A DNA stretch of 64,000 nt from Chloroflexota bacterium (GCA_026706485.1 JAPOYR010000010.1:145798-209797); one strand, 5' to 3'. Shown: positions 1-63,554, numbered from the stretch's first letter. The notes: generated by a model from the sequence alone, not told the origin. Program-made: numbers and translations.

Positions 1-845
1 TCCCGGTTACCCGACTCTTCGAAAAGCTGCTGAGCCCAGCCGAGCAGGAAGCGTGGAAGGCGCCCGATCCGGAGGACGCCGCCGTCTTGAATGCGGTGGA
101 AGCCGGCACGCGTGAAGGCACGATCGACGCCTACGACTCGGCGATGATCGCCAACGTCATCGAGCTCGGCGATCGCGTCGCGCGCCAGGTCATGACGCCG
201 CGGCCCGACATCGTGGCCATGCCGCGGACGGAGCCCCTGCGGACAGCGCTCGCGTTGGCGCACGAACACGGCCTGTCGCGGCTTCCCGTGTACGACGACG
301 ACCTCGATTCCGTAATCGGCATTCTTCACGTCCGCGAGGCGAGCGCCGCGCTGCTGGACGGGCAGCCGCCATCGGACCTCTCATCCCTGGTTCGTCCGCC
401 GCTATTCGTACCGGAGATGCAGCGCGTCGACCTGCTGTTGCGCGAGCTGCGCGCCCGCAACACCCATATGGCCATCGTGGTCAACGAACACGGCGAAACC
501 GAGGGCCTGGTGACGATCGAGGATCTCCTGGAAGAGATCGTCGGCGAGATCGAGGATGAGTTCGACTCGCCCGAGGTCCAGATTGAGCCCATGGGCGCCG
601 GAGTCATCGAGACCGACGCGAGCGTTCTCATCACCGAGGTCAACGAGGCTCTGGGGCTGGAGCTGGCCGCCGATGACGTCGACACGATCGGCGGCCTGGT
701 CTACAACTCGATGGGAGCGGTACCCAACCCGGGCGATTCCGTGGCCGTCGACGGCGCGGCGCTCGAGGTGCTCACCACAAAAGCCAATCGGATCCTGCGC
801 GTGCGGGTGCGCAAGATTCCCGTGGAGCCGGATCATGGAGGCTGA
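1..845 (+). CDS. CNNM/CorC/HlyC-family protein (CBS pair + CorC_HlyC domain), 5'-truncated by window edge
   Basis: Frame 3 is open from position 3 with no stop before 845. The translation contains a CBS-pair followed by a CorC/HlyC transporter-associated C-terminal domain (IEDLLEEIVGEIEDEFD motif), as in paralogs 2 and 3 downstream. Confidence 0.75.
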   Translation, partial: PVTRLFEKLLSPAEQEAWKAPDPEDAAVLNAVEAGTREGTIDAYDSAMIANVIELGDRVARQVMTPRPDIVAMPRTEPLRTALALAHEHGLSRLPVYDDDLDSVIGILHVREASAALLDGQPPSDLSSLVRPPLFVPEMQRVDLLLRELRARNTHMAIVVNEHGETEGLVTIEDLLEEIVGEIEDEFDSPEVQIEPMGAGVIETDASVLITEVNEALGLELAADDVDTIGGLVYNSMGAVPNPGDSVAVDGAALEVLTTKANRILRVRVRKIPVEPDHGG

Positions 846-968
846 CCAGCCTCCCGATCCGGCGCTCGCCGTTGCCTGCCGCATGCCAGTTGCCTGCCGG
901 CGCCGCCGGTTTTGTCGGCCTAGGGTCACGCAGGGAACGCCGCTATAGAAATCCTGGTCGGCCTCGCG

Positions 969-2252
969 GTGTTCGTGGTGCTCATCGCGATCAACGCGCT
1001 ATTCGCCGGAGGCCAGTTTGCGCTCATTGCGGTAGACCGCTATCGCATCGACGATTTGGCCAGCCGCAACGTCCGCGGCGCGCGTCTGGTGCAGCGAGCC
1101 CTGCGGACGCTTTCATTCCAGCTCTCAGGGGCCCAGCTGGGAATCACCATCAGCTCGCTGATCCTGGGCTGGGTTGTCGACGGCGCACTCTCGCCAATAC
1201 TTCGGCCACTGTTGGGCTGGCTGCCGCCGGGGTCTATCGGCGCCGCAACCGCGGCAATCGCGCTGGTGCTTGCGACCGCGCTGCAAATGGTCTTCGGCGA
1301 GCTGGCGCCCAAGAACCTGGCCATTGCACGGCCCGCCCGCACCGCGGTCGTCTTCGTCCCGCCCGTGGTGCTCATCAACACCTTGGCGGGCCCCCTCATC
1401 CGCTTCCTGAACGCGGCGGCCAACTGGTCCATGCAGCGCGTGGGGATTCAGCCGCGCGAGGAGCTCCCCGGCGTCGAGTCGCTCGAGGAGCTCCGGAGCA
1501 CGCTCCGCTGGGCGGCGCTGGAGGGTGAGATCGAGGGTGTCGAGCACACGCTGCTCGACCGGGCGCTCAGCCTGCGCGACCGCGCCGCGCGCGACGTCCA
1601 GGTCCCCCGCTCGTCGGTCGTCTCGCTGGCCGGCGACGCCACCTACGCGGACTTGATCGAGGCGGCGCGGGACACCGGACACTCGCGCTTCCCCATCCAG
1701 GATGTCTACGGCTCGGGATTCGCGGCCATCGCGCACGTGAAGGACGCCCTCCGGGTCGCGGCGGAGGATCGCGCGCGAACGGCGCTTGCGCCCAGCGGCC
1801 AACCGCTGGTCGTAGTCCCGGAGTCCACCGATTTGCACAGCCTGCTCATCGAGCTGCAACGGCAGGGTCAAACCATGGCCATCGTGCTCGACGAGTTCGG
1901 CAACGAATCCGGCATCGTCACCATCGAGGACATCGTGGAAGAGGTGCTGGGCGAAATCGAGGACGAGTACGACCCCCCAGCCGTGCGGCTGGCGACGCCA
2001 ACCGGTACCGGCGTGTATGAAGCGGACGGACGCATTCGGCAACTGGAGCTGCTCGAAGCCACCGGATTCGAAATGCCCGACGGCCGCTATGACACCTTGG
2101 CGGGGCTGTTGATCATGCGCTTCCAGCGAGTGCCCGACGTTGGCGACCGCATTGAAATCGACGGCTGGCGCTTTCAGGTCCTCGAAATGGACGGTCCGCG
2201 CATTGCGCAGGTTCTGCTCACGTCGCCGGCTCGCCTGCGGGGTCGCGCATGA
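969..2252 (+). CDS. hemolysin/CNNM family protein (DUF21 membrane domain + CBS pair + CorC_HlyC)
   Basis: 427-aa ORF with a hydrophobic DUF21-like N-terminus (VLIAINALFAGGQFAL), a CBS pair and a C-terminal IEDIVEEVLGEIEDEYD CorC motif. The start is GTG at 969, and the frame is open from 924, so the exact start is uncertain. Confidence 0.8.
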   Translation: MFVVLIAINALFAGGQFALIAVDRYRIDDLASRNVRGARLVQRALRTLSFQLSGAQLGITISSLILGWVVDGALSPILRPLLGWLPPGSIGAATAAIALVLATALQMVFGELAPKNLAIARPARTAVVFVPPVVLINTLAGPLIRFLNAAANWSMQRVGIQPREELPGVESLEELRSTLRWAALEGEIEGVEHTLLDRALSLRDRAARDVQVPRSSVVSLAGDATYADLIEAARDTGHSRFPIQDVYGSGFAAIAHVKDALRVAAEDRARTALAPSGQPLVVVPESTDLHSLLIELQRQGQTMAIVLDEFGNESGIVTIEDIVEEVLGEIEDEYDPPAVRLATPTGTGVYEADGRIRQLELLEATGFEMPDGRYDTLAGLLIMRFQRVPDVGDRIEIDGWRFQVLEMDGPRIAQVLLTSPARLRGRA

Positions 2253-3580
2253 ACGTCGTGTTTCTCCTCGCGGCGGTGCTGCTGCTCGCCGTGAACGCGT
2301 TCATGGTCGGAGCGGAGGTGGCCATCACCGCGGCCGCCGGACGACGCTCAGCCATCGAGGCTGAGGCCGCGCGGGGTGGCTATCGCGCGCGACTGGCCAG
2401 CACGTCGCTGCGCGAGCTCGCCTTCATGCTCACCGGCGCGCAGTTTGGGATCACCCTGGCCTCGCTGGGACTTGGATTCGTCGCGGAACCGGCCATCGCT
2501 GACTTGATCGTCCACGCGGTGGGCGATCACATCGACATTCCCGAGAACGTGATCCACGTCATTGCGTCGGCCATTGCCCTCACCCTCGTCGTCTTCCTCC
2601 ACATGGTGCTGGGCGAGATGGCGCCCAAAAACATCGCCATTGCGGAGCCAATCCGAACCATGCTCTGGGTCTCGGTGCCGTACCGGGCCTACGCCAACGC
2701 GATTCGACCGGTGCTATGGGTCCTCAACGGCATGGCCAACCTGGTGCTGCGCGCGTTCGGCATTGCCCCGCGCGAAGAGCTGCGGACGCGCTACACGGCG
2801 ACGCAGATCACCGAGATGCTTTCGGCCTTGCGCCGCATCGAGGCCATCGATGTCTCCGACTTTCGGCTGGTGCAAGGCGCGATCGGGCTCGAATCGCGCA
2901 AGGCCCGCGACATCATGCTGCCGCGATCATCGGTCGTGACCGTGCCCGCCACCGCAACCGTTCGCGAGATCGAGGCCCTTGCCGCTGAAACGGGGCATTC
3001 CCGACTGCCCGTGCTCGGCAGCCAACCGGACGACTTTCGGGGATTCGTGCACATCAAGGACCTGCTGACGCGCACCGATCTGCGGCCATCGTCGGCGCTG
3101 CCGGTCGCCATGATTCGCCCGTTGCCGGTGGTGCCCGAGACCGCCACGCTGGGCGCGCTGCTGCTCGATATGCGACGCCGACGCAGCCATATGGTGCTCG
3201 CCATCGACGAGCACGGCAGCCCGGCGGGCGTCGTGGCTCTGGAGGATCTGCTGGAAGAGCTGGTGGGCGAAATCGCCGATGAGTTCGATCGGCAGTCCCA
3301 TCTGCCGTCAGCCCAGCCCGGACGCTTCGTCGTGGCCGGCAGCCTGCGTCCCGCCGATCTCGAGGACCGGACGGGCCTGCAACTGCCCGAAGGTCCCTAT
3401 TCCACGGTCGCCGGGTACGTGATGCAGCAGCTCGGCGCCATGCCCCGCGTCGGACAAATGGTGATTCACGACGGGTGGCGACTCCACGTGCGCCGCATGC
3501 AGGGTCCGCGCGTGGCCGAAATCGAGCTCGTGCCTCCGGAAACGGCCTCGGAGGCGGACGCTGGCGCTGCTCCCGAGTGA
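2249..3580 (+). CDS. hemolysin/CNNM family protein (DUF21 + CBS pair + CorC_HlyC), third tandem paralog
   Basis: 443-aa ORF with the same architecture (LEDLLEELVGEIADEFD). Its start overlaps the previous stop by 4 bp. Confidence 0.8.
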   Translation: MNVVFLLAAVLLLAVNAFMVGAEVAITAAAGRRSAIEAEAARGGYRARLASTSLRELAFMLTGAQFGITLASLGLGFVAEPAIADLIVHAVGDHIDIPENVIHVIASAIALTLVVFLHMVLGEMAPKNIAIAEPIRTMLWVSVPYRAYANAIRPVLWVLNGMANLVLRAFGIAPREELRTRYTATQITEMLSALRRIEAIDVSDFRLVQGAIGLESRKARDIMLPRSSVVTVPATATVREIEALAAETGHSRLPVLGSQPDDFRGFVHIKDLLTRTDLRPSSALPVAMIRPLPVVPETATLGALLLDMRRRRSHMVLAIDEHGSPAGVVALEDLLEELVGEIADEFDRQSHLPSAQPGRFVVAGSLRPADLEDRTGLQLPEGPYSTVAGYVMQQLGAMPRVGQMVIHDGWRLHVRRMQGPRVAEIELVPPETASEADAGAAPE

Positions 3581-4465: not shown

Positions 4466-5770
4466 ATGGCTGCGCCCGATCTCGACACCCTGGTCGCTCT
4501 TGCCAAGCGTCGCGGATTCGTATTCGGGAGCTCCGAGATCTACGGCGGGTTCGCCAGCACCTGGGACTACGGACCGCTGGGCGCCGAGTTGATCCGCAAC
4601 GTCAAGGAAGCCTGGTGGCGCCGCGTGGTGATGGCCCGCGAGGACGTGGTGGGCCTGAACGCCTCGATCCTCATGCATCCCCGGGTCTGGGAAGCTTCGG
4701 GACACGTCGAGAACTTCAACGACCCCCTGGTCGAATGTCCCGAGTGCCGCCGCCGCTTTCGCCAGGATGACGTGCCGGACGGCGCGTGCCCGCATGACGG
4801 TGCGGCGCTCACCGATCCGCGCCGCTTCAACACCATGTTCAGCACACAGGTCGGACCGGTCGCGGAGTCGGCGGCCACGGCCTACCTCCGGCCCGAGACG
4901 GCTCAAGCGATCTTCGTCAACTTCAAGAACGTCCTCGACTCAACGCGCGTCCGACTGCCGTTCGGAATCGCCCAGATCGGCAAGGCGTTCCGCAACGAGA
5001 TCACCACGGGAAACTTCATCTTCCGCAGCCGCGAGTTCGAGCAGATGGAGCTGGAATATTTCGTGGAGCCTGGTCAGGACGCGGCCGCCTACCAAGCCTG
5101 GGTCGATGAGCGCTTGGCCTGGTGGCAGGAGTTCGGGCTCGACTCCAGTCGTCTTCGGCTGCGCCCGCACGGCGCCGACGAGCTTTCGCACTACTCGAAG
5201 GGCACCACCGACATCGAGTACGAGTTCCCCTTCGGCTGGGGTGAGCTGGAAGGCATTGCCAACCGCACCGATTTCGACCTCGCGCGGCACGCCGAGGCCA
5301 GCGGGGAGACACTCACGGTGTTCGACGAAGCCTCCAAGTCGCACATCCGGCCCTACGTCGTCGAGCCGGCGAGCGGTGTCGACCGCGCGGCGTTGGCATT
5401 CCTGGCCGACGCCTACACCGAGCAGGAAGTGCGCGGCGAGACGCGAGTCTTCCTGAACCTGGACCCGCGCCTGGCGCCAATCAAGGCCGCCATTTTTCCG
5501 CTGGCGCGCAACAAGCCCGACTTGGTCAAGCTCGCGCGAGACGTTCGAGCGCGTCTGGCCGCGTCGTGGCCGGTCTTCTACGACGCCGGCGGGTCCATTG
5601 GGCGACGCTACGCCCGCCAGGACGAGGCCGGCACGCCATTCGGAATCACCGTGGACTACGACTCGCTGGACGACCACTCCGTGACCGTCCGTCACCGCGA
5701 CACGATGGACCAGGACCGCGTGGCCGTAGACGACCTTCACGGCTTCCTGGCCGAGCGGCTGGCCTGGTAA
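4466..5770 (+). CDS. glyQS: glycine--tRNA ligase (class II, homodimeric GlyQS type)
   Basis: N-terminal RGFVFGSSEIYGGFASTWDYGPLG and class-II aaRS motifs. 434 aa. Confidence 0.9.
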   Translation: MAAPDLDTLVALAKRRGFVFGSSEIYGGFASTWDYGPLGAELIRNVKEAWWRRVVMAREDVVGLNASILMHPRVWEASGHVENFNDPLVECPECRRRFRQDDVPDGACPHDGAALTDPRRFNTMFSTQVGPVAESAATAYLRPETAQAIFVNFKNVLDSTRVRLPFGIAQIGKAFRNEITTGNFIFRSREFEQMELEYFVEPGQDAAAYQAWVDERLAWWQEFGLDSSRLRLRPHGADELSHYSKGTTDIEYEFPFGWGELEGIANRTDFDLARHAEASGETLTVFDEASKSHIRPYVVEPASGVDRAALAFLADAYTEQEVRGETRVFLNLDPRLAPIKAAIFPLARNKPDLVKLARDVRARLAASWPVFYDAGGSIGRRYARQDEAGTPFGITVDYDSLDDHSVTVRHRDTMDQDRVAVDDLHGFLAERLAW

Positions 5771-5772
5771 GC

Positions 5773-6411
5773 ATGGGCGGCGAGGGCGGTCAGCCGGCGG
5801 CCGGATCCTACTCGCGGGCCGAGCGAATCATCCTGGGGCCGTTTCGCCGCGCAATGGCGGTCGTTCTCGCACCGGTGGTGGCTGCGCTGGCCTGGCTCGG
5901 CGTGCCGCCGACGGCTGTGTCGTTGAGCCAGATTCCCATCGGATTCGCCGCCGCCGCGCTCATCATGCACGCGCCGCGCGTGGCCCTGGGGCTATTCGTG
6001 GGCACGCTGCTGCTGGACGCCATCGACGGGGCGCTGGCGCGAAAAACGGGCCGTGCGTCAGCCTTCGGAGCCCTGGCCGACCAGGTTTCCGACCACATCC
6101 GCGAGATCACGTTCGTGGGCGGTCTGGTCGCCGCCGGCGCGATGCGGGGCGAAATCGGCGTGGCCTACGCGCTGTTGTATCCGCTGGTGAACTTCATGCT
6201 CTACGCCGCCAATCGCCACGGCGCCGACGTGCCTCTGGCGATCAAGACTTGGATGTCGTTCTACCCGTTTCTGCTCATCTACCTGGCGTTCGAGATCAAC
6301 TGGCTGGACTATGCCGGCGCGGCGTCCGCCGGATTCATGGCCGCAACGTCGATCACGGCGCTAGTGCTCATGCGGCATCGCATGAATGGCAACAACCTGC
6401 CGACCGACTAG
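5773..6411 (+). CDS. CDP-alcohol phosphatidyltransferase family protein
   Basis: Multi-TM protein carrying the D-G-x2-A-R...G-x3-D-x3-D motif (DAIDGALARKTG...GALADQVSDH). The ATG at 5773 follows the glyQS stop in the same frame as the longer ORF-track call (5566), and the upstream part overlaps glyQS. Confidence 0.7.
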   Translation: MGGEGGQPAAGSYSRAERIILGPFRRAMAVVLAPVVAALAWLGVPPTAVSLSQIPIGFAAAALIMHAPRVALGLFVGTLLLDAIDGALARKTGRASAFGALADQVSDHIREITFVGGLVAAGAMRGEIGVAYALLYPLVNFMLYAANRHGADVPLAIKTWMSFYPFLLIYLAFEINWLDYAGAASAGFMAATSITALVLMRHRMNGNNLPTD

Positions 6412-12837: not shown

Positions 12838-14040
12838 ATGGCCTCCGCCCACGCTCTCCGCTGGTTCAACGACGCCCGCTTCGGCATGTTCATTCACTGG
12901 GGGCTCTACTCCGTGCTCGCCCGCCACGAGTGGACCATGTACCAGGAGGAAATTCCCAACGAGGAGTACGCCCGCCTGGCCGACCGGTTCACCGCCGCCC
13001 GCTACTCCCCGGACGATTGGGTCGCGCTCGCCCAGGATACGGGCATGCGCTACATGATCCTGACCTCGCGCCATCACGAAGGCTTCGCGCTCTGGGATTC
13101 GAAGGTCTCGAACTTCACGGCGCCCAACTCCGCCGCCGGACGGGACGTATTGGCCGAGTTCGTGGCCGCTTGCCAGAAGCGGCGCATGCCCTATGGCTTC
13201 TACTACTCCCTGCTGGACTGGCGCTGGCCGGAATATTTCCGTGGCCCGCAGGCCGACCCCGACGGCTGGGCGCGGTTTCGGGCCTACGTGCACGCGCAGG
13301 TCGAAGAGCTGTGCACCGACTATGGCGAGCTTGCCGTGCTTTGGTATGACGGCGGCTGGCCGTACACGCCGGAGGCCTGGGACTCCGCGGCGCTCAACGC
13401 CCGCGTCCGCGAGCTGCAGCCGAACATCTTGATCAACGACCGGTCGCTGCTGCCCGAAGATTTCGACACGCCGGAGCAGCACGTCACCGCGTCGCCCCCG
13501 GGCCGCCCCTGGGAGAGCTGCATGACCATGAACACCACCTGGGGCTATTCCACCATCGACCACGAGTGGCGCACGCCGCGGCAGCTGATTCATTTTCTCG
13601 TCACCGCCGCCGCGGGCGGAGGCAACTACCTGCTCAACGTCGGGCCCGAACCGGACGGGCACATCCCGTTCGAGTCCGTGGAGCGGCTGCGGGCCATGGG
13701 CGCTTGGATGCGGGTCAACAGCGAATCGATCTACGGCTCCGAGCGCATGCCCGATCGCCTCATGCGCGTGGGCAGCGTCGGACGGCATCACACCATCAAG
13801 GGCAATACGCTCTACCTGCACTGCTGGCGCTGGCCGGGCCGGGAGATGGTGCTGGGCAATTTGGACGGCACCTTGCTCTCAGCGCGGTTCCTGTATGACG
13901 GCACCCCCATCGACTTCGACCAGCGCCAGAACCGCATCTGGCTGCGCGACCTGCCGGCATTCGCCCCCGACCCCATCGACACCGTCATCGCCCTGGACTT
14001 CGACCGCCGCCCCGGCCTGCGCAATCGGTTCGGAGGGTAG
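12838..14040 (+). CDS. alpha-L-fucosidase (glycoside hydrolase family 29)
   Basis: GH29 N-terminal motifs (FGMFIHWGLYSV, YMILTSRHHEGFALWDS, YGFYYSLLDW). 400 aa. Confidence 0.85.
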   Translation: MASAHALRWFNDARFGMFIHWGLYSVLARHEWTMYQEEIPNEEYARLADRFTAARYSPDDWVALAQDTGMRYMILTSRHHEGFALWDSKVSNFTAPNSAAGRDVLAEFVAACQKRRMPYGFYYSLLDWRWPEYFRGPQADPDGWARFRAYVHAQVEELCTDYGELAVLWYDGGWPYTPEAWDSAALNARVRELQPNILINDRSLLPEDFDTPEQHVTASPPGRPWESCMTMNTTWGYSTIDHEWRTPRQLIHFLVTAAAGGGNYLLNVGPEPDGHIPFESVERLRAMGAWMRVNSESIYGSERMPDRLMRVGSVGRHHTIKGNTLYLHCWRWPGREMVLGNLDGTLLSARFLYDGTPIDFDQRQNRIWLRDLPAFAPDPIDTVIALDFDRRPGLRNRFGG

Positions 14041-14140
14041 GCACGGGATTCAAGCCCGACCGCCGCCAAGCATCCGGCGCGCCTCCAGGTTCGACCGGAC
14101 TGGATTCCGGCTCCCCGGCCTCGGAGACCCTTGCGTAACC

Positions 14141-14300
14141 CTTCGTCATTCCCGCGAAGGCGGGAATCCACCCTTCGTTGAATCTGGGCGCGGAAGCGAT
14201 GCGCACGGTCATCCCAAAGCCCGGCTGGGTCTTGCAATGGTCTCCCTTCGCGGGGACAGGCTCTGCCGGAATGACGGAGAGATAGCGCAAGGATCTTCCT
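14141..14300. repeat. intergenic palindromic repeat element, copy 1 (core ATTCCC-GCGAAGGC-GGGAAT at 14148..14167)
   Basis: Related copies occur at 57071..57130 and 63226..63330, with a partial match at 17823..17858. The shared ~100 bp reads gtcattcccgcgaaggcgggaatccaccc...gcacggtcatcc...tcttgcaa, and this copy has an inverted terminal match (cgtcattcc / ggaatgacg). Confidence 0.7.
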
Positions 14301-14408: not shown

Positions 14409-15317
14409 ATGGAGCGTCAGTCCGTGCGCCGTGTCTCCGCGGTTCTGTTGGTCGCATTCGTGGTCGGTGTGGGCGTGCAGAGCGCCTGCGCCGGCGACCG
14501 CGTCGAGCAATTCCCGACCGGTCAGACTCTGGTCGTTCCCGCCCCTGGGGCTGCTTGGTTCCGCGTCCCGGAGGCGGCCGCCCTCAGGCCGGCCGTTGAG
14601 CCATTCCACATTCCGGCGGCGGTCGTAACCGCGCCGGTGACTCCCGCGCCGATCGCCGGGTGGTCGAGCACGTCCACACCGGCCGTAGCCGCGCCAGCCA
14701 CTCCAGCGTCGACCGCCGCGCCGGCCCCAGCTCCGCCGCCAGTCGTAACGGCGTCGGCCACTCCCGTAGCGACCGCCGCGCCGACCCGTGCTTCTACGCC
14801 AGCCGTCACCGCGTCGACCACTCCCGCACCAACTGCCGCGCCGTCCCCCACTCCCACGCCAGCCGTAGCCGCGTCGGTCACGCCCGCACCGACCGTCGCT
14901 CCGACTCGCACCCGCGAGCCGGACACCGGTTCACGGGGCCCTGGCTCGCGGGCACCGCGATCGGAGGTTCCAGGGTTAATTCCAGTGCCGGCGCTTGGCA
15001 ACCCCGAGGCGGAGTGCGAAGCCCTGGCGGATACCTACACCGCCGCGCACCAGTTCTATCAGGCCGGCACGGTGACGAGCAGCACGGCTTGGAATGACTA
15101 CCTCACCGCACACAACTCCGGCCAGGTCAGTCAGGCAAGGGTCTCGCGGCTGCAGCAGTCGTATGAACGGCTCTCGGCGAACCTCGATCGCTCGCTCGCG
15201 ACCATGGCTGCCAGCGAGCAAGCCGCGCACGAATTCGAGGCCCAGCAAAGGGGTCGGTGCGATGTCGATCAGGTCGCAGGCCAGCGCTACCGTGGCTTGC
15301 CGCCGCCGCAAGGCTGA
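14409..15317 (+). CDS. secreted hypothetical protein with Pro/Ala/Thr-rich tandem-repeat linker
   Basis: N-terminal signal peptide (VSAVLLVAFVVGVGVQSACAG), then a low-complexity PT/A-rich region encoded by five tandem 60-bp repeats, then a non-repetitive C-terminal domain. Confidence 0.6.
   Translation: MERQSVRRVSAVLLVAFVVGVGVQSACAGDRVEQFPTGQTLVVPAPGAAWFRVPEAAALRPAVEPFHIPAAVVTAPVTPAPIAGWSSTSTPAVAAPATPASTAAPAPAPPPVVTASATPVATAAPTRASTPAVTASTTPAPTAAPSPTPTPAVAASVTPAPTVAPTRTREPDTGSRGPGSRAPRSEVPGLIPVPALGNPEAECEALADTYTAAHQFYQAGTVTSSTAWNDYLTAHNSGQVSQARVSRLQQSYERLSANLDRSLATMAASEQAAHEFEAQQRGRCDVDQVAGQRYRGLPPPQG
14619..14918 (+). repeat. tandem repeat, 5 x ~60 bp (imperfect), in-frame inside CDS 14409..15317
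   Basis: The units are ccRgYcgtMRccgcgYcRgYcacKccc... and encode ~20-aa PAVTAS-TPAPTAAP-type repeats. The five copies can be aligned by eye. Confidence 0.8.
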
Positions 15318-15340: not shown

Positions 15341-15784
15341 CTAACCGAGGATGCCCGGCTCTCCGATCCAACGGACATTCCGGGCAGCCTGGCGTGCCGC
15401 GCGGTGGAATCTCTCGTCGGCGGTCCACAGCTCGCAATTGAGCGTCTCGGCCAGAGCTAGGTAGTGGGCGTCGTAGACCGCCCCCTGTTGAAGTTCGGTT
15501 GCCAACGCTAGGGCTCTTGCGTGTAGCTCTACCGACTGGTGCAACTCAAGCCGCGAGCTAAGCAATTGCGAGATCATGCGAGCGGTGTCTCCGACGCTCA
15601 ACTGATTGCGAGTCACCCGTCGATGGAGAGCGTTGGCGACCTCGAAGGGCAACAGGTAGGGAGCGGCCGGTGTGACCTCATCGTCATGCCATGCGCTGAG
15701 AATCACCAAAGCCCTGTCCGTGTGCTCCTCTCGCACCAACCACTTGACGGCCACGCTCGCATCGACGACGACATATCCGCTCAC
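15341..15784 (-). CDS. vapC: type II toxin-antitoxin system VapC-family toxin (PIN domain)
   Basis: PIN-domain N-terminus (VVVDASVAVKWLVREEH) with conserved acidic residues. The GTG start at 15784 overlaps the antitoxin stop (GTGA), and the ORF-track start is 15790. Confidence 0.75.
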   Translation of the reverse strand: MSGYVVVDASVAVKWLVREEHTDRALVILSAWHDDEVTPAAPYLLPFEVANALHRRVTRNQLSVGDTARMISQLLSSRLELHQSVELHARALALATELQQGAVYDAHYLALAETLNCELWTADERFHRAARQAARNVRWIGEPGILG

Positions 15785-16083
15785 ACCCACCGCTCAATCT
15801 CGGTTTCCCTAATCTCACGGGCCTCTCGAATCAGGTCAGCAGAGTTTCCGGGCAAAGTCCTGTCCCCGAGTATCTCGATCTGGAGTTCTGCGAACCGCTC
15901 GTGGTCGGGCTTGTCCGACAACAGTCCGCCCAAGCCGTTGGCCTCGTCCCTTGTCAATTCCCGGTCGATTGCGGCCTGGCAGTACCCACGCATGCTGACG
16001 CCCTTTATCGCGGCCATGACCTTCAGTCGGCGCTGAAAGCCGGGCTCCAGATCCAGGGTGAGTCGCTTCTTCCGGGCAGCCAT
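15781..16083 (-). CDS. vapB: type II toxin-antitoxin system antitoxin (ribbon-helix-helix / plasmid-stability-type)
   Basis: Small protein (MAARKKRLTLDLEPGFQRRLKVMAAIKGVSMRGYCQAAIDRELTRDE) immediately upstream of, and overlapping, the PIN toxin. Local GC is lower than in the flanks. Confidence 0.65.
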   Translation of the reverse strand: MAARKKRLTLDLEPGFQRRLKVMAAIKGVSMRGYCQAAIDRELTRDEANGLGGLLSDKPDHERFAELQIEILGDRTLPGNSADLIREAREIRETEIERWV

Positions 16084-16267
16084 TGGCGTCCCCTCCCGAC
16101 GATTTCGGTCGCCGCCAAGCATAGTGCAAATACGGAAAAGCGTGTTTCCGCAGCAATCCTCGCAAGGGCAGGTACACGACAGCCTCGCCGCTTAGCCCTC
16201 ACGACCCGCCGGATCACTCAGTCTGAGCAACGAATCTGCTCGAAGCTGCGCGGCTACTTGCCTTAGC

Positions 16268-17667: not shown

Positions 17668-17822
17668 GGCGTCTCCCGTCTGACACTTCGTTCATGCGAT
17701 TGTGCCACCGGCTGCGTGGCCGGCCGGGGCGCGGAAATATGACCGTCCACCAGAGGCGCCCCTACATCGCCCGCCGGGAGATGAAGCCGTGACCCTCGGA
17801 TGGCCACATGCGTGGGCGCCGT

Positions 17823-17858
17823 TCGTGGTGAGCCCTTCGGCGGGCTCAGGACAGGCTC
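17823..17858. repeat. partial copy of the palindromic repeat family (cccttcggcgggctcaggacaggctctgtcg)
   Basis: About 25 of 30 positions match the 14236..14268 segment of copy 1. It lies in the divergent DUF3105/gnd intergenic region. Confidence 0.4.
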
Positions 17859-17959
17859 TGTCGAACCATGACCGGCGCCCTTCGACTTCGCTCAGCGCGA
17901 GCGGATAATGGCGCCAGGCGCCGCCAGTACACCTAACGCTCTGAGAGGACCACCGCGTC

Positions 17960-57043: not shown

Positions 57044-57070
57044 ACCCGGACGGAGGCCCCTGCGCAACCG

Positions 57071-57130
57071 GCCCGTCATTCCCGCGAAGGCGGGAATCCA
57101 CCCCTCATTGAACCTGGGGGCGCGCCGGAC
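57071..57130. repeat. palindromic repeat element, copy 2 (core ATTCCCGCGAAGGCGGGAAT at 57078..57097)
   Basis: Identical core and flanks (gtcattcccgcgaaggcgggaatccaccc.tc.ttgaa.ctggg) to copies 1 and 3. Confidence 0.7.
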
Positions 57131-57149
57131 GCTCAGCGTCGGTAGGGGC

Positions 57150-57245
57150 CGGTTTCCAACCGGCCCGTCCGCGGGCGCCAATCGCCCGGCGGGCATCCAC
57201 GCCATCCCGACGGGCGGGTCTCCGACCCGCCCCTACCGGAGTTTG
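57150..57245. repeat. cluster of nested GC-rich inverted repeats in a convergent intergenic region
   Basis: Palindromes ggccggtt-tcc-aaccggcc, cgggcgcc-aat-cgcccg and gggcgggtc-tcc-gacccgccc are enclosed by ggtaggggc...gcccctacc. Confidence 0.5.
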
Positions 57246-57280
57246 CAGGGGACTCCGAAGACGGGAATTCAGCAGCCGCC

Positions 57281-58267
57281 CTACTCCGGCTCGAACAACG
57301 ACTTGGGCGGCTCGCCCCGAAGCACCCGCGCGACCTCCGCCGCGGCCTCGCGGCGCAGGATGCGAATCGACGTCCGCGAATAAAAGCCGCTATGCGGCGT
57401 GATGATGACGTTGGGCGCCTCCCGCAGCGGTGAGTCCATCGGCAGCGGCTCTTCTTCCATCACGTCCAGGCCCGCGCCGGCGATCCGCCCGTCCTTGAGC
57501 GCCCGCGCCAGCGCGGCGTTGTCGACGACCGCCCCGCGGGCCGTGTTGATCAAGAACACGCTGGGCTTCATCAAGTCGATCTCGGCCTCACCGATCAGGT
57601 GGTGCGTCTGCGCCCGCAACGGCGTGTGCACCGACACGAAGTCGGATTGCCGCAAGAGATCGTCCAGCGGCACACGCTCGACTTGCGACGCCTCGAATGC
57701 GGAATCCGGCGCACGCGGCGAGTGCCCGATCGCCCGCAATCCAAAGGCCCGCGCCCGCGCCGCCACGGCCTGCGCCGTCTGCCCCAGTCCGATCAGCCCA
57801 AGCGTCTGCCCCTCGACGCGCTCCATCCGCTCGGGAACACCGCCGCTGGCGTCCCAGACTCCGGCGCGCACGTCGTCGTTGTAGACCACGATGTGGCGGG
57901 CCAGGGCTAGCAGAAAACCCATCGTGTGGTCCGCGACCTCGCCGACCTGGTAGTCGCGCACGTTGCAGACCACGATGCCCTTGGCCGTCGCCGCCGCCAC
58001 GTCGATCGGGTCCATGCCGGTGCCGTAGCGCACGATCACCTTGCAGCGCTCCAGGGCATCCACGACGCGTGCCGTGATTGGCGCGTACTGTTCGAGCAAA
58101 CCGTCGGCGTCGGCCACCTTCTCGATCAGCGCGTCTTCCGTGAAGCATTGCTCCACGACCAGCTCGGCGCCGATGGGATCGAGCTCGGCCTGCTCGATCA
58201 CCGGCGGCATCTCGAAATCGCAGTCGGTGATCACGACCCGGAAGCGGGGCTCGGTCATTGGCGCCAT
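57281..58267 (-). CDS. D-isomer-specific 2-hydroxyacid dehydrogenase (second copy)
   Basis: GLIGLGQTAQAVA NAD-binding motif and the 2-HADH catalytic domain. 328 aa. Confidence 0.8.
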   Translation of the reverse strand: MAPMTEPRFRVVITDCDFEMPPVIEQAELDPIGAELVVEQCFTEDALIEKVADADGLLEQYAPITARVVDALERCKVIVRYGTGMDPIDVAAATAKGIVVCNVRDYQVGEVADHTMGFLLALARHIVVYNDDVRAGVWDASGGVPERMERVEGQTLGLIGLGQTAQAVAARARAFGLRAIGHSPRAPDSAFEASQVERVPLDDLLRQSDFVSVHTPLRAQTHHLIGEAEIDLMKPSVFLINTARGAVVDNAALARALKDGRIAGAGLDVMEEEPLPMDSPLREAPNVIITPHSGFYSRTSIRILRREAAAEVARVLRGEPPKSLFEPE

Positions 58268-62021: not shown

Positions 62022-63179
62022 GTGAAGATCGCCAGCGTCCAAGCGGTCGCCCTCGATTTCGGTGAGCGGCGCGCCACGAGCAAGCCCCGCGCGTCGTGGA
62101 CGGAGGACGCGCGCGTGGGCTCGCCCATGGCCCGCTATCCGCGCTACGCGGAGGTGCGATCGAGCTGGACGCCGAACTGGCCCGGCGTGGGCGTGGTCGT
62201 CACCGCCGAGGACGGCACACAGGGCCTGGGAATTGGCGCGCTCGGCCGGCCCATGGCCGCCCTGGTGGACGACTATCTCGGCCCGCGCATCGTCGGCGAG
62301 CCGGCGCTGGCGACGGAGCGCATCTACGACATGATGCTGCGGCTGTGCTCGCCCTTCGGCGCCACGGGACTGGCCTCGTACGCGGTGAGCGCCATCGATC
62401 TCGCGCTGTGGGACCTCAAGGGCAAGGTGCTGGATCGACCGGTCTACGAGCTGATGGGCGGCCCCGCGCGCGACGAAATCGTCTGCTACGCCACCGGGCC
62501 GCAGCACGAGTGGCACTTGGAGCTTGGGTTCACCGCCACCAAGCACCCCTGCCGCTACGGCCCGCCGGACGGCCTGGACGGCCTGCGCCACAACGTCGAC
62601 GACATCGCCGCCCTGAGGGATCTCGTCGGCCCCGACGTCGAGCTGATGCTCGATTGCTGGATGTCCCTCGACGTGGAGTACGCCGTGCGCCTGATCGAGG
62701 AGCTGCGGCCGTTCAAGCTCAAGTGGATCGAGGAAGTGCTGCGGTCCGAGGACATGGACAGCCACGCCGCGCTGCGCGAGCGCGTGCCCTGGCAGACGCT
62801 CGCCACCGGCGAGCACTGGTATACCCCGACGCCGTTCCAGCACGCCGCCAGCCGCCGCCTGGTCGACATCCTGCAGCCCGACATCATGTGGGTGGGCGGC
62901 ATCACGGCCCTGATGCGCATCTGCGCCATCGCCGACGCGGCCGGACTCGCGGTCATCCCCCACGCCGGCGTCAACGAGCCCTACGGCCAGCATGCCTGCT
63001 GCGCGCTGCCCGGCATTCCCTGGGGCGAGTATTTCGTCGCCTCCGGCCCCGGAACCGACCTCGCCGACGCCGTCTCGGTCCCCGGCGCGTCCCACCCCGT
63101 CAACGGCCGCCTGCGCCCCTCCGACGCCCCCGGATTCGGCATCGAAATCGACCTTGCGACGCTGCAACCCTACGGCTAG
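62022..63179 (+). CDS. enolase-superfamily protein (mandelate racemase/muconate lactonizing enzyme family), second copy
   Basis: MR/MLE capping domain plus barrel (DLALWDLKGK, MLDCWMS, IEEVLRSED). 385 aa. Confidence 0.75.
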   Translation: MKIASVQAVALDFGERRATSKPRASWTEDARVGSPMARYPRYAEVRSSWTPNWPGVGVVVTAEDGTQGLGIGALGRPMAALVDDYLGPRIVGEPALATERIYDMMLRLCSPFGATGLASYAVSAIDLALWDLKGKVLDRPVYELMGGPARDEIVCYATGPQHEWHLELGFTATKHPCRYGPPDGLDGLRHNVDDIAALRDLVGPDVELMLDCWMSLDVEYAVRLIEELRPFKLKWIEEVLRSEDMDSHAALRERVPWQTLATGEHWYTPTPFQHAASRRLVDILQPDIMWVGGITALMRICAIADAAGLAVIPHAGVNEPYGQHACCALPGIPWGEYFVASGPGTDLADAVSVPGASHPVNGRLRPSDAPGFGIEIDLATLQPYG

Positions 63180-63189
63180 CCGTTCGGTT

Positions 63190-63210
63190 CCCTCTCCCTT
63201 GGGGAGAGGG
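63190..63210 (+). terminator. perfect 9-bp stem / 3-nt loop hairpin (CCCTCTCCC-TTG-GGGAGAGGG) 11 nt after the enolase-family stop
   Basis: Palindrome read directly from the sequence. There is no following T-tract, so calling it an intrinsic terminator is tentative. Confidence 0.4.
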
Positions 63211-63225
63211 TCAGGGTGAGGGGGT

Positions 63226-63330
63226 CCGTCACTCCCGCGAAGGCGGGAATCCACCCTTCGGCAATCCCGGGCACGCATGGGATTCGCACGGTCATCCTTC
63301 GCCTCACCGCGTCTTGCAAGAGACTCACAT
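63226..63330. repeat. palindromic repeat element, copy 3 (variant core ACTCCCGCGAAGGCGGGAAT at 63231..63250)
   Basis: Over ~100 bp the element matches copy 1 (gtcaYtcccgcgaaggcgggaatccacccttcg..aatc.ggg...gcacggtcatcc....c...tcttgcaa). Confidence 0.7.
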
Positions 63331-63554
63331 GGGAGAACGCGACGGTGAGCAGGTCCGGTGGCCCGCGCTGCGTGCAGCGTGGGACGGCCGCGGCTGAATC
63401 TCCCAGGCTGCGCGCAGCCTGGGCCACCGGGCAGGGCTGCACGTACAAGACCCATTTCCGAGGAGGGGCGCCCCGTGTAAGCGCCCTTCCTTTCGCCGTC
63501 CCGGCCCGCTGGTAGGCTCGCCGCAGCACCGCGCGTCGTCCATCGGAGGACTCC

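Follow-up and report, generated by a model that had tools for sequence, protein, structure and literature searches.

The window analyzed is a 64,000-nucleotide stretch of a Chloroflexota bacterium (GCA_026706485.1 JAPOYR010000010.1:145798-209797), and all window positions are counted from its first letter. Three intergenic spacers of the window contain a repeat that lies on the plus strand in 3/3 cases. Copy 1 is located downstream of an alpha-L-fucosidase gene (12838-14040, plus strand). Copy 2 begins 9 nt past the stop codon of a Gfo/Idh/MocA gene (to 57043, plus strand) and occupies the spacer between this gene and a convergent 2-hydroxyacid dehydrogenase gene (57281-58267, minus strand). 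Copy 3 follows an MR/MLE-type dehydratase gene (62022-63179, plus strand) and precedes an ABC ATPase gene that starts at about 63555. The 20-mer ATTCCCGCGAAGGCGGGAAT is found exactly at 14148-14167 and 57078-57097 and with one mismatch at 63231-63250; these three matches (at most one mismatch) compare with 0.01 expected from shuffles. An nhmmer profile made from 25 complete copies in related genomes matches the window at exactly three places, which are copies 1, 2, and 3. A previous sequence-only reading of the window had named these three copies and called them always intergenic. The copies and their placement stand, but the extents assigned to them (14141..14300, 57071..57130, and 63226..63330) were misplaced.

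Copy 1 (14124-14244, plus strand) is a complete 121-nt element, which we call X (nhmmer model 1-121, E = 5.6e-35; aligned with 37 other complete copies). Its left terminal repeat, GAGACCCTTGC, is at 14124-14134 and its right terminal repeat, GCAATGGTCTC, is at 14234-14244, both on the plus strand. The core, CGTCATTCCCGCGAAGGCGGGAATCCAC (14144-14171, plus strand), contains a hairpin at 14148-14167 with an 8-bp stem and a GAAG loop (single-stranded DNA fold, -8.9 kcal/mol, z = -3.15). The left flank GCCTCG (14118-14123) and the right flank CCTTCG (14245-14250) match at 4/6 bases and resemble an imperfect target-site duplication, and copy 1 is the only window copy with such a flanking repeat pair. 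Positions 14245-14300 are host sequence outside copy 1.

Copy 2 (57053-57255, plus strand) has both ends (GGAGGCCCCTGCG ... GCAGGGGACTC) and is not the 60-nt unit described earlier. The profile matches model positions 2-87 at 57054-57140 (E = 1.5e-16), and the right terminal repeat at 57245-57255 was read from the sequence beyond this match. Its core is at 57074-57101 (plus strand), and its middle is swapped for two GTAGGGGC-type palindromes at 57142-57169 (plus strand) and 57210-57236 (minus strand). Variants that resemble copy 2 are present in the related loci L064 and L088. Judged against the right flanks seen at complete copies (CGAAGGCGGGAATCCA), the right flank of copy 2, CGAAGACGGGAATTCA (57256-57271, plus strand), looks like the loop and right arm of a split host hairpin of the core type. 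Copy 3 (63225-63326, plus strand; nhmmer model 19-120 at 63225-63325, E = 4.9e-16) consists of the core and the right module without the left 18-nt module, and its right terminal repeat is TTGCAAGAGACTC. Its core (63227-63254, plus strand) is an ACTCCC variant. As single-stranded DNA, the cores of copies 1 and 2 form a stem of 8 bp and a loop of 4 nt (-8.9 kcal/mol, z about -3.2), and the stem of copy 3 is only 6 bp because of the ACTCCC change. The 20-mer described as a perfect hairpin is thus one in copies 1 and 2 but not in copy 3. Copy 3 abuts a different palindromic repeat, CCCTCTCCCTTGGGGAGAGGG + TCAGGGTGAGGG (63190-63222). Elsewhere X has two common host families, and this repeat belongs to one of them.

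Copy 1 is itself surrounded by an older, diverged, inverted copy, X'. The right part of X' (14041-14123, minus strand) aligns with copy 2 and with positions 6228-6345 of L127, a locus from a near-conspecific genome. It reads GCCGGAATCC AGTCCGGTC GAACCTGGAGGCGCGCCGG... on the minus strand, and the inverted match between 14055-14092 and 57110-57147 is 84% complementary. The left part of X' (14251-14285, minus strand) comprises the variant core arm CCGTCATTCCGGC and the small palindrome arm CAGAGCCTGTCCCCG. Positions 14251-14285 together with 14104-14123 form the hairpin that encloses copy 1, and the enclosing older hairpin ATTCCGGC..GCCGGAAT extends over 14104-14272. The layers at copy 1 are a young X (plus strand) in a small palindrome, which is in turn in the X' variant hairpin GTCATTCCGGC..GCCGGAATCC. 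The pair cgtcattcc / ggaatgacg, earlier taken as an inverted terminal match of copy 1, joins the X core to an arm of the older enclosing hairpin. In L127 the X' hairpin is uninterrupted (GTCATTCCGGC-GGAG-GCCGGAATCC) and its orientation is opposite to that in the window. The two segments compared, window 14041-14285 and L127 6228-6345, both lie downstream of the fucosidase, and the adjacent gene is about 96% identical. X' is inverted between the two, and its hairpin holds an insertion in the window but none in L127; the repeats thus mark inversion sites as well as insertion sites.

Other repeats share the window. A repeat of about 95 nt at 17821-17915 (plus strand; GTGGTGAGCCCTTCGGCGGGCTCAGGACAGGCTCTGTCGAACCATGACC...CCCTTCGACTTCGCTCAGCGCGAGCGG) belongs to another family and has no X profile match. 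GGCGCC direct repeats (17815-17820 and 17910-17915) bracket it, and the orthologous DUF3105/6PGD spacer of L122 does not contain it, which suggests a second mobile repeat family. The partial copy of X proposed at 17823..17858 gave no profile match and resembles only the host sequence that encloses copy 1 (GGACAGGCTCTG.CG). At least three further palindromic families share the spacers with X (63190-63222, 63361-63384, 63402-63423, 57142-57169, and 57210-57236); they are CCCTCTCCC..GGGAGAGGG+TCAGGGTGAGGG, CCCGCGCTGCGTGCAGCGTGGGA / CCCAGGCTGCGCGCAGCCTGGG, and GTAGGGGC-headed REP-like hairpins. The CTGCGTGCAGCGTGGGA palindrome is kept at the orthologous site in L125. A DDE transposase gene (PF13701/PF01609, 441 aa) is located at L123 40-1725, and the inverted ends that border it (..AAATCCACCGA / TCGGTGGAT..) are its own. 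Because the loop region of a CCCTCTCCC..GGGAGAGGG palindrome holds this gene, it seems that insertions land in hairpin loops generally in the lineage. The transposase was considered as the mobilizer of X and rejected because its termini are different.

The gene neighborhood has repeats and variable segments of its own. A long ORF at 14409-15317 contains, at 14679-14918, four 60-nt repeats in tandem with 67-73% identity to the reference copy. The public gene call covers only the last 110 codons of this ORF (14985-15317), and a 298-aa homologue is present in L134. A PIN-domain toxin gene with a small upstream partner (15341-16122) lies between the fucosidase and metallophosphoesterase genes. The pair is missing in L128 and present in L127 and L134, which defines a small variable island beside copy 1. 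Three tandem paralogous CNNM/CBS/CorC-type genes at 434-3288 form the 132-nt repeat family D2 with 64-71% identity.

The core of the repeat corresponds to a known nuclease target. The Neisseria Transformation Sequence (NTS) is a 28-nt repeat with the consensus CGTCATTCCCGCGMAVGCGGGAATCYRG that contains dRS3, and a degenerate Ssn-related motif (SRM) is likewise defined as HGTCWYN(0-2)YYVSBRHN(0-5)WNVSBRGN(0-2)RNCYNB (PMC11893778). SsnA, a single-domain GIY-YIG protein of 94 aa assigned to CDD family cd10448, binds and cuts the NTS hairpin in single-stranded DNA only and on one strand only, and it does not act on RNA (PMC11893778). Cutting depends on the three bases 5' of the palindrome and binding on the C just 3' of it (PMC11893778). 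The ssn genes are typically bracketed by the NTS/SRM repeat, the repeats are seldom within genes, and NTS copies were searched for with at most one mismatch to the consensus (PMC11893778). Copies 1 and 2 differ from the NTS consensus at one position (last G to C) and copy 3 differs at two. The SRM motif is matched by 3/3 copies, compared with a mean of 0.58 and a maximum of 3 matches in dinucleotide shuffles of the window. The strict dRS3 pattern ATTCCC-N8-GGGAAT is matched by copies 1 and 2; copy 3 (ACTCCC) fails. CGTC and the trailing C are kept in 3/3 window copies, and the core thus retains both the GTC on the 5' side (cutting) and the C on the 3' side (binding) that are critical in the published system (PMC11893778). 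Based on sequence, the core belongs to the NTS/SRM repeat class of the Ssn nuclease system. The dRS3 likeness, which had been put down to possible convergence, reflects membership in this class because the core matches the NTS, the single-stranded DNA target of the Ssn GIY-YIG nucleases, and a hairpin-flanked GIY-YIG gene is present in near relatives (see below).

The distribution of the repeat was determined by scanning species-representative genomes with the 24-mer TCCCGCGAAGGCGGGAATCCACCC from the core, which gave at least 120 matching 8-kb stretches. The matches listed were mostly from Chloroflexota/Dehalococcoidia MAGs, several with bin names from sponge studies. We take these names to suggest that the relatives are sponge symbionts. 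Among the matches listed, the exact 24-mer was also present in Alpha-, Beta-, and Gammaproteobacteria, in Auribacterota, and in bins labeled cyanobacterial, Spirochaetales, and Coriobacteriales. Sorting by downstream sequence showed that about 49 of the at least 120 matches are alike well beyond the core. The X consensus derived from them is about 121 nt (GAGACCTTTGCGTAACCCTTC-GTCATTCCCGCGAAGGCGGGAATCCACCC-TTCATTGAACCTGGGGGCGGACAGGATGCGCCCGGTCATCCCCAAGCCCGGCTGGATTCTGCAAAGGTCTC), and the length was 120-122 nt in 24/26 copies in a strict scan. The profile found 264 matches in about 1 Mb of fetched loci, which bears out the earlier description of a dispersed, palindromic, MITE- or REP-like intergenic family. 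These comprise 43 complete X elements, 25 copies with the core and right module ('19-121', the form of copy 3), 11 with the left module and core, and 127 solo cores (about 35 nt). The fetched copies overstate how conserved the core is, because a 24-mer from the core was used to fetch them. The X-specific modules, all outside the core, are almost confined to one group of Chloroflexota MAGs, and the solo core is the part common to several phyla. About 90% of the matches are intergenic (with a crude gene call, 214/239 in GC-rich loci are outside genes). Spacers are more often convergent than divergent (43 vs 17), and there is a mild bias toward the same orientation as flanking tandem genes (50 same, 31 opposite).

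Several individual loci illustrate the range of arrangements. A complete X at L043 4920-5041 is on an 11-kb contig binned as Alphaproteobacteria, from a sample series shared with an X-rich Chloroflexota bin; a mistake in binning is more probable here than transfer between phyla. In other taxa the core forms head-to-tail arrays (L115 about 2260-2760, L076 about 975-1100, and L099 about 5650-5800). An array in a Dehalococcoidia MAG has 50-nt units made of the core and an identical 21-nt linker, and near-contiguous cores are found in a Halieaceae genome and a cyanobacterial bin. These arrays are not CRISPR-like because their spacers are identical or absent. L132 has at 600-700 three tandem left core halves (CCGTCATTCCCGCACCCC) followed by a complete hairpin upstream of ssn, and half-core arrays are also present in L075, L090, and L099.

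X has an 18-nt left module, a hairpin core of about 30 nt, and a right module of about 73 nt, is non-coding, and ends in 11-bp terminal inverted repeats, GAGACCTTTGC/GCAAAGGTCTC. With its terminal inverted repeats, small size, lack of an ORF, and many copies, it has the features of a MITE. The 11-bp termini pair in 83.5% of the cells in 38 copies and show no compensatory change, and 235/500 shuffles pair as well as the terminal stem. Pairing without compensatory change is more in keeping with DNA ends recognized by a protein than with an RNA helix under selection. Complete copies sit between the two halves of other palindromes, which are broken at the loop. One host type is an NTS hairpin (cattcccg CGAAGG [X] CGAAGG cgggaat) and the other is the CCCTCTCC...GGAGAGGG hairpin (cctctcac TCGAT [X] TCGAT gggagagg), and X is found in both orientations relative to the host palindrome. 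X nests within itself, as its own hairpin is of the target type, and nested copies are seen in L002 and at window copy 1.

The target-site duplications that had been proposed as a check appear as direct repeats enriched at X flanks in the related genomes, but they vary between 5, 6, and 7 bp and are perfect at 12/42 complete copies (about 30%). A perfect 5-bp pair flanks 4/42 copies (mismatched control 0.1%), a 6-bp pair 6/42 (control 3.3%), and a 7-bp pair 2/42 (control 0.3%). The flanks of many other copies are decayed or chimeric. The GAGACC/GGTCTC ends were also considered as outward-facing BsaI/Eco31I-type sites, where a 1/5 cut exposes the 4-nt loop. This was set aside as coincidence because it fits the 6-bp duplications only and not those of 5 or 7 bp. 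Relatives with 89-96% nucleotide identity do not have X at any of the three orthologous sites that were examined. The alignment is good in the bordering genes and in the promoter-proximal DNA, and the orthologous spacers hold other palindromes. No clean empty site was found among the orthologous spacers of six relatives; the spacers have been rebuilt from other palindromes, so X is absent but there is no exact excision or insertion footprint. A search of about 1 Mb of loci, biased to core-containing blocks, did not detect a longer element with X termini 260-5000 bp apart around a gene.

A motif and tblastn screen did not detect a small GIY-YIG ORF in the 64-kb window. The same screen of the fetched loci found two small GIY-YIG ORFs adjoining NTS copies in the Auribacterota MAG L112 and a 95-aa single-domain GIY-YIG ORF in the Chloroflexota contig CBDEVI010000002.1 (L013 286-573, PF01541 E = 7e-14). 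The genome of CBDEVI010000002.1 is nearly conspecific with that of the window; its fucosidase is 96.4% identical in nucleotide sequence and 98.75% in protein sequence, and the gene order is the same. The 95-aa protein has 3990 relatives at E<=1e-10. The gene was compared in six loci, from the near-conspecific genome and five relatives, and its position is AhpC-ssn-ADC-PEPCK in 6/6. In 6/6 loci, the distance from the end of a perfect upstream 27-nt NTS to the ATG is 21 nt. A perfect inverted NTS lies 3-115 nt past the stop codon in 5/6, and in the sixth nhmmer found a more diverged one. At the level of sequence, the NTS-ssn-NTS locus of the near relatives reproduces the published architecture. 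Its conserved location suggests that ssn is a vertically kept, domesticated gene. The ssn homologues that were looked up (n = 5) all come from samples other than that of the window. The protein has no NCBIfam match, and a PDB sequence search gave a marginal UPF0213 match only. Its AF2 model has low confidence (pLDDT 64), and the Foldseek comparison with the PDB was uninformative.

The explanation that we favor, with a probability of about 0.7, is that X is a Chloroflexota-specific, non-coding, mobile mosaic element of about 121 bp that carries an NTS/SRM core. We infer cutting of the core by the Chloroflexota GIY-YIG protein and an enzyme that moves X. When the DNA is single-stranded during replication, repair, or DNA uptake, a hairpin would form on the strand reading CGTCATTCCC. 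The genome's own putative 95-aa Ssn homologue would nick a few bases 5' of this hairpin, and the nicks may modulate recombination around these sites. X would insert into the loops of existing palindromes, including other NTS hairpins, in either orientation, would leave 5-7-bp direct repeats, and would nest. Insertion of X into loops would thus distribute the nuclease target over intergenic DNA, with a preference for gene 3' ends. A more speculative form of this model, for which the odds are long, is that the Ssn-NTS pair itself constitutes a mobile system based on GIY-YIG, from which X is derived as a non-autonomous form, and that the nuclease, alone or with host repair, drives copy-in at extruded loops. 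If true, this would be a GIY-YIG-based route unlike DDE, HUH, serine, or tyrosine transposition or homing, and it would explain the multiplication of dRS3/NTS-type repeats across phyla.

An alternative that we regard as unlikely, yet worth serious weight, is that X does not transpose and that the mosaic is produced solely by slippage and recombination, homologous or illegitimate, between the many identical NTS hairpins. This would be NIME/BIME-like shuffling, possibly started by Ssn nicks, and the 'terminal repeats' would be another palindrome module. Such shuffling would account for the breakpoints of partial forms, which cluster at the core edges (model starts 16-21 and ends 46-55), for the chimeric flanks in which the left and right host halves differ (L002, L036, and L005), and for the inversion of X' between near-conspecific genomes. 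The core-edge breakpoints are also consistent with insertion into an NTS host followed by deletion between core halves in direct repeat. The exact duplication of the non-palindromic loops CGAAGG, TCGAT, TTGAT, CTTTCG, and CCTGGTG at the GAGACC/GGTCTC ends argues for insertion. These duplications occur at unrelated host palindromes and in both orientations, and recombination between cores does not predict them. No transposase was found in the loci, the duplication length is not fixed, the flanks of many copies are decayed or chimeric, and no exact empty site was found; the recombination alternative therefore remains live.

Two further alternatives have much lower probabilities. The element might act as RNA, as a structured small RNA, an mRNA 3'-end stabilizer, or a terminator. 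We consider this very unlikely, even though 3/3 window copies follow a co-oriented gene, the orientation of flanking tandem genes is somewhat favored (50 vs 31), and the element can fold into a long stem. Both orientations are common, and scans of all three sites found neither a T-run terminator nor a sigma-70-like promoter. Rfam 15 at the gathering score detected only tRNA in the whole window, and hits over copy 1 at E<=10 were noise (E>=1). The RNA fold that had been suggested as a check gave no conserved structure beyond the invariant 8-bp hairpin, which is all that RNAalifold retains. The terminal stem lacks covariation (235/500 shuffles pair as well), the whole-element fold has a z-score of -1.1, and SsnA does not act on RNA (PMC11893778). 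Least probable of all is that the hairpins are classical REP/REPIN sequences spread by RAYT rather than Ssn targets. They are intergenic and GC-rich, inverted doublets occur among the proteobacterial matches, and GTAG-headed palindromes of the classical REP type are also present in the window. However, the head of the core is GTCA and not GTAG, and the core is the experimentally defined Ssn target (PMC11893778). A tblastn search with E. coli RayT of 1.1 Mb of hairpin loci, with limited sensitivity for distant RAYTs, gave a single match at E<=1, which is at chance level (E = 0.8), and the loci screened for RayT yielded GIY-YIG genes flanked by the hairpin.

As a mobile mosaic element, X would add to a system that is already known. 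The Ssn-NTS pair is established, and its core is here in a phylum that is not named in the main text of the Nat Commun 2025 report (PMC11893778). The characterization of the nuclease family that targets the hairpin dates only from 2025. The 121-nt carrier element appears to be undescribed; a literature search with element-specific strings returned no description of it. X differs between genomes that are about 96% identical in one flanking gene, which provides a concrete, datable record of repeat spread. Several near-complete close relatives are available in which insertion, inversion, and loss can be counted. The core and the GIY-YIG protein would also offer a natural substrate-enzyme pair, with a CCAC tail in place of CYRG, for the study of Ssn specificity.

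The closest known system is NTS/SRM-Ssn. The cores agree at 27/28 positions, among them the oriented 5' CGTC and the 3' C, both sets of repeats occur in many intergenic copies, and the near relatives have a single-domain GIY-YIG gene of about 95 aa bracketed by inverted repeat copies. The high copy number in a symbiont-type lineage is also shared, and the same is noted for other taxa (PMC11893778). The differences are the Chloroflexota host, the 3' tail (CCAC rather than CYRG), and the location of many cores inside a 121-nt element that has terminal repeats and is flanked by duplications; such an element is not described there (PMC11893778). Neisserial dRS3 repeats and NIMEs share with X the ATTCCC-N8-GGGAAT pattern (copies 1 and 2, but not copy 3) and intergenic arrays that are mosaic, modular, and quick to turn over between close relatives. 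In NIMEs, dRS3 copies flank RS units. This feature is absent from the window, where each element has one core inside the unit and different terminal repeats outside it, and X, unlike NIMEs, splits other hairpins at their loops. In this comparison, no link to a filamentous phage or an IS110-type recombinase was seen. REP/BIME and REPIN-RAYT systems likewise consist of short extragenic hairpins that cluster into mosaics, and their enzyme gene likewise looks domesticated, is single-copy, and has its own repeats on both sides. Their enzyme is HUH-Y1, whereas here it is GIY-YIG, no RAYT was found in the 1.1 Mb searched, and the core lacks the GTAG head.

Insertion sequences that target hairpin loops provide the last comparison. 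IS1397 and ISKpn1 insert into the palindromic units of E. coli and Klebsiella; IS1397 duplicates 3-4 bp, and Correia elements, which are bacterial MITEs, duplicate TA. X resembles them in its insertion into the loops of extragenic palindromes with short duplications, and in being a small, many-copy element with terminal inverted repeats and no coding capacity. It differs in that no related autonomous element was found, its duplications are 5-7 bp, and it bears its own target-type hairpin and so nests within itself.
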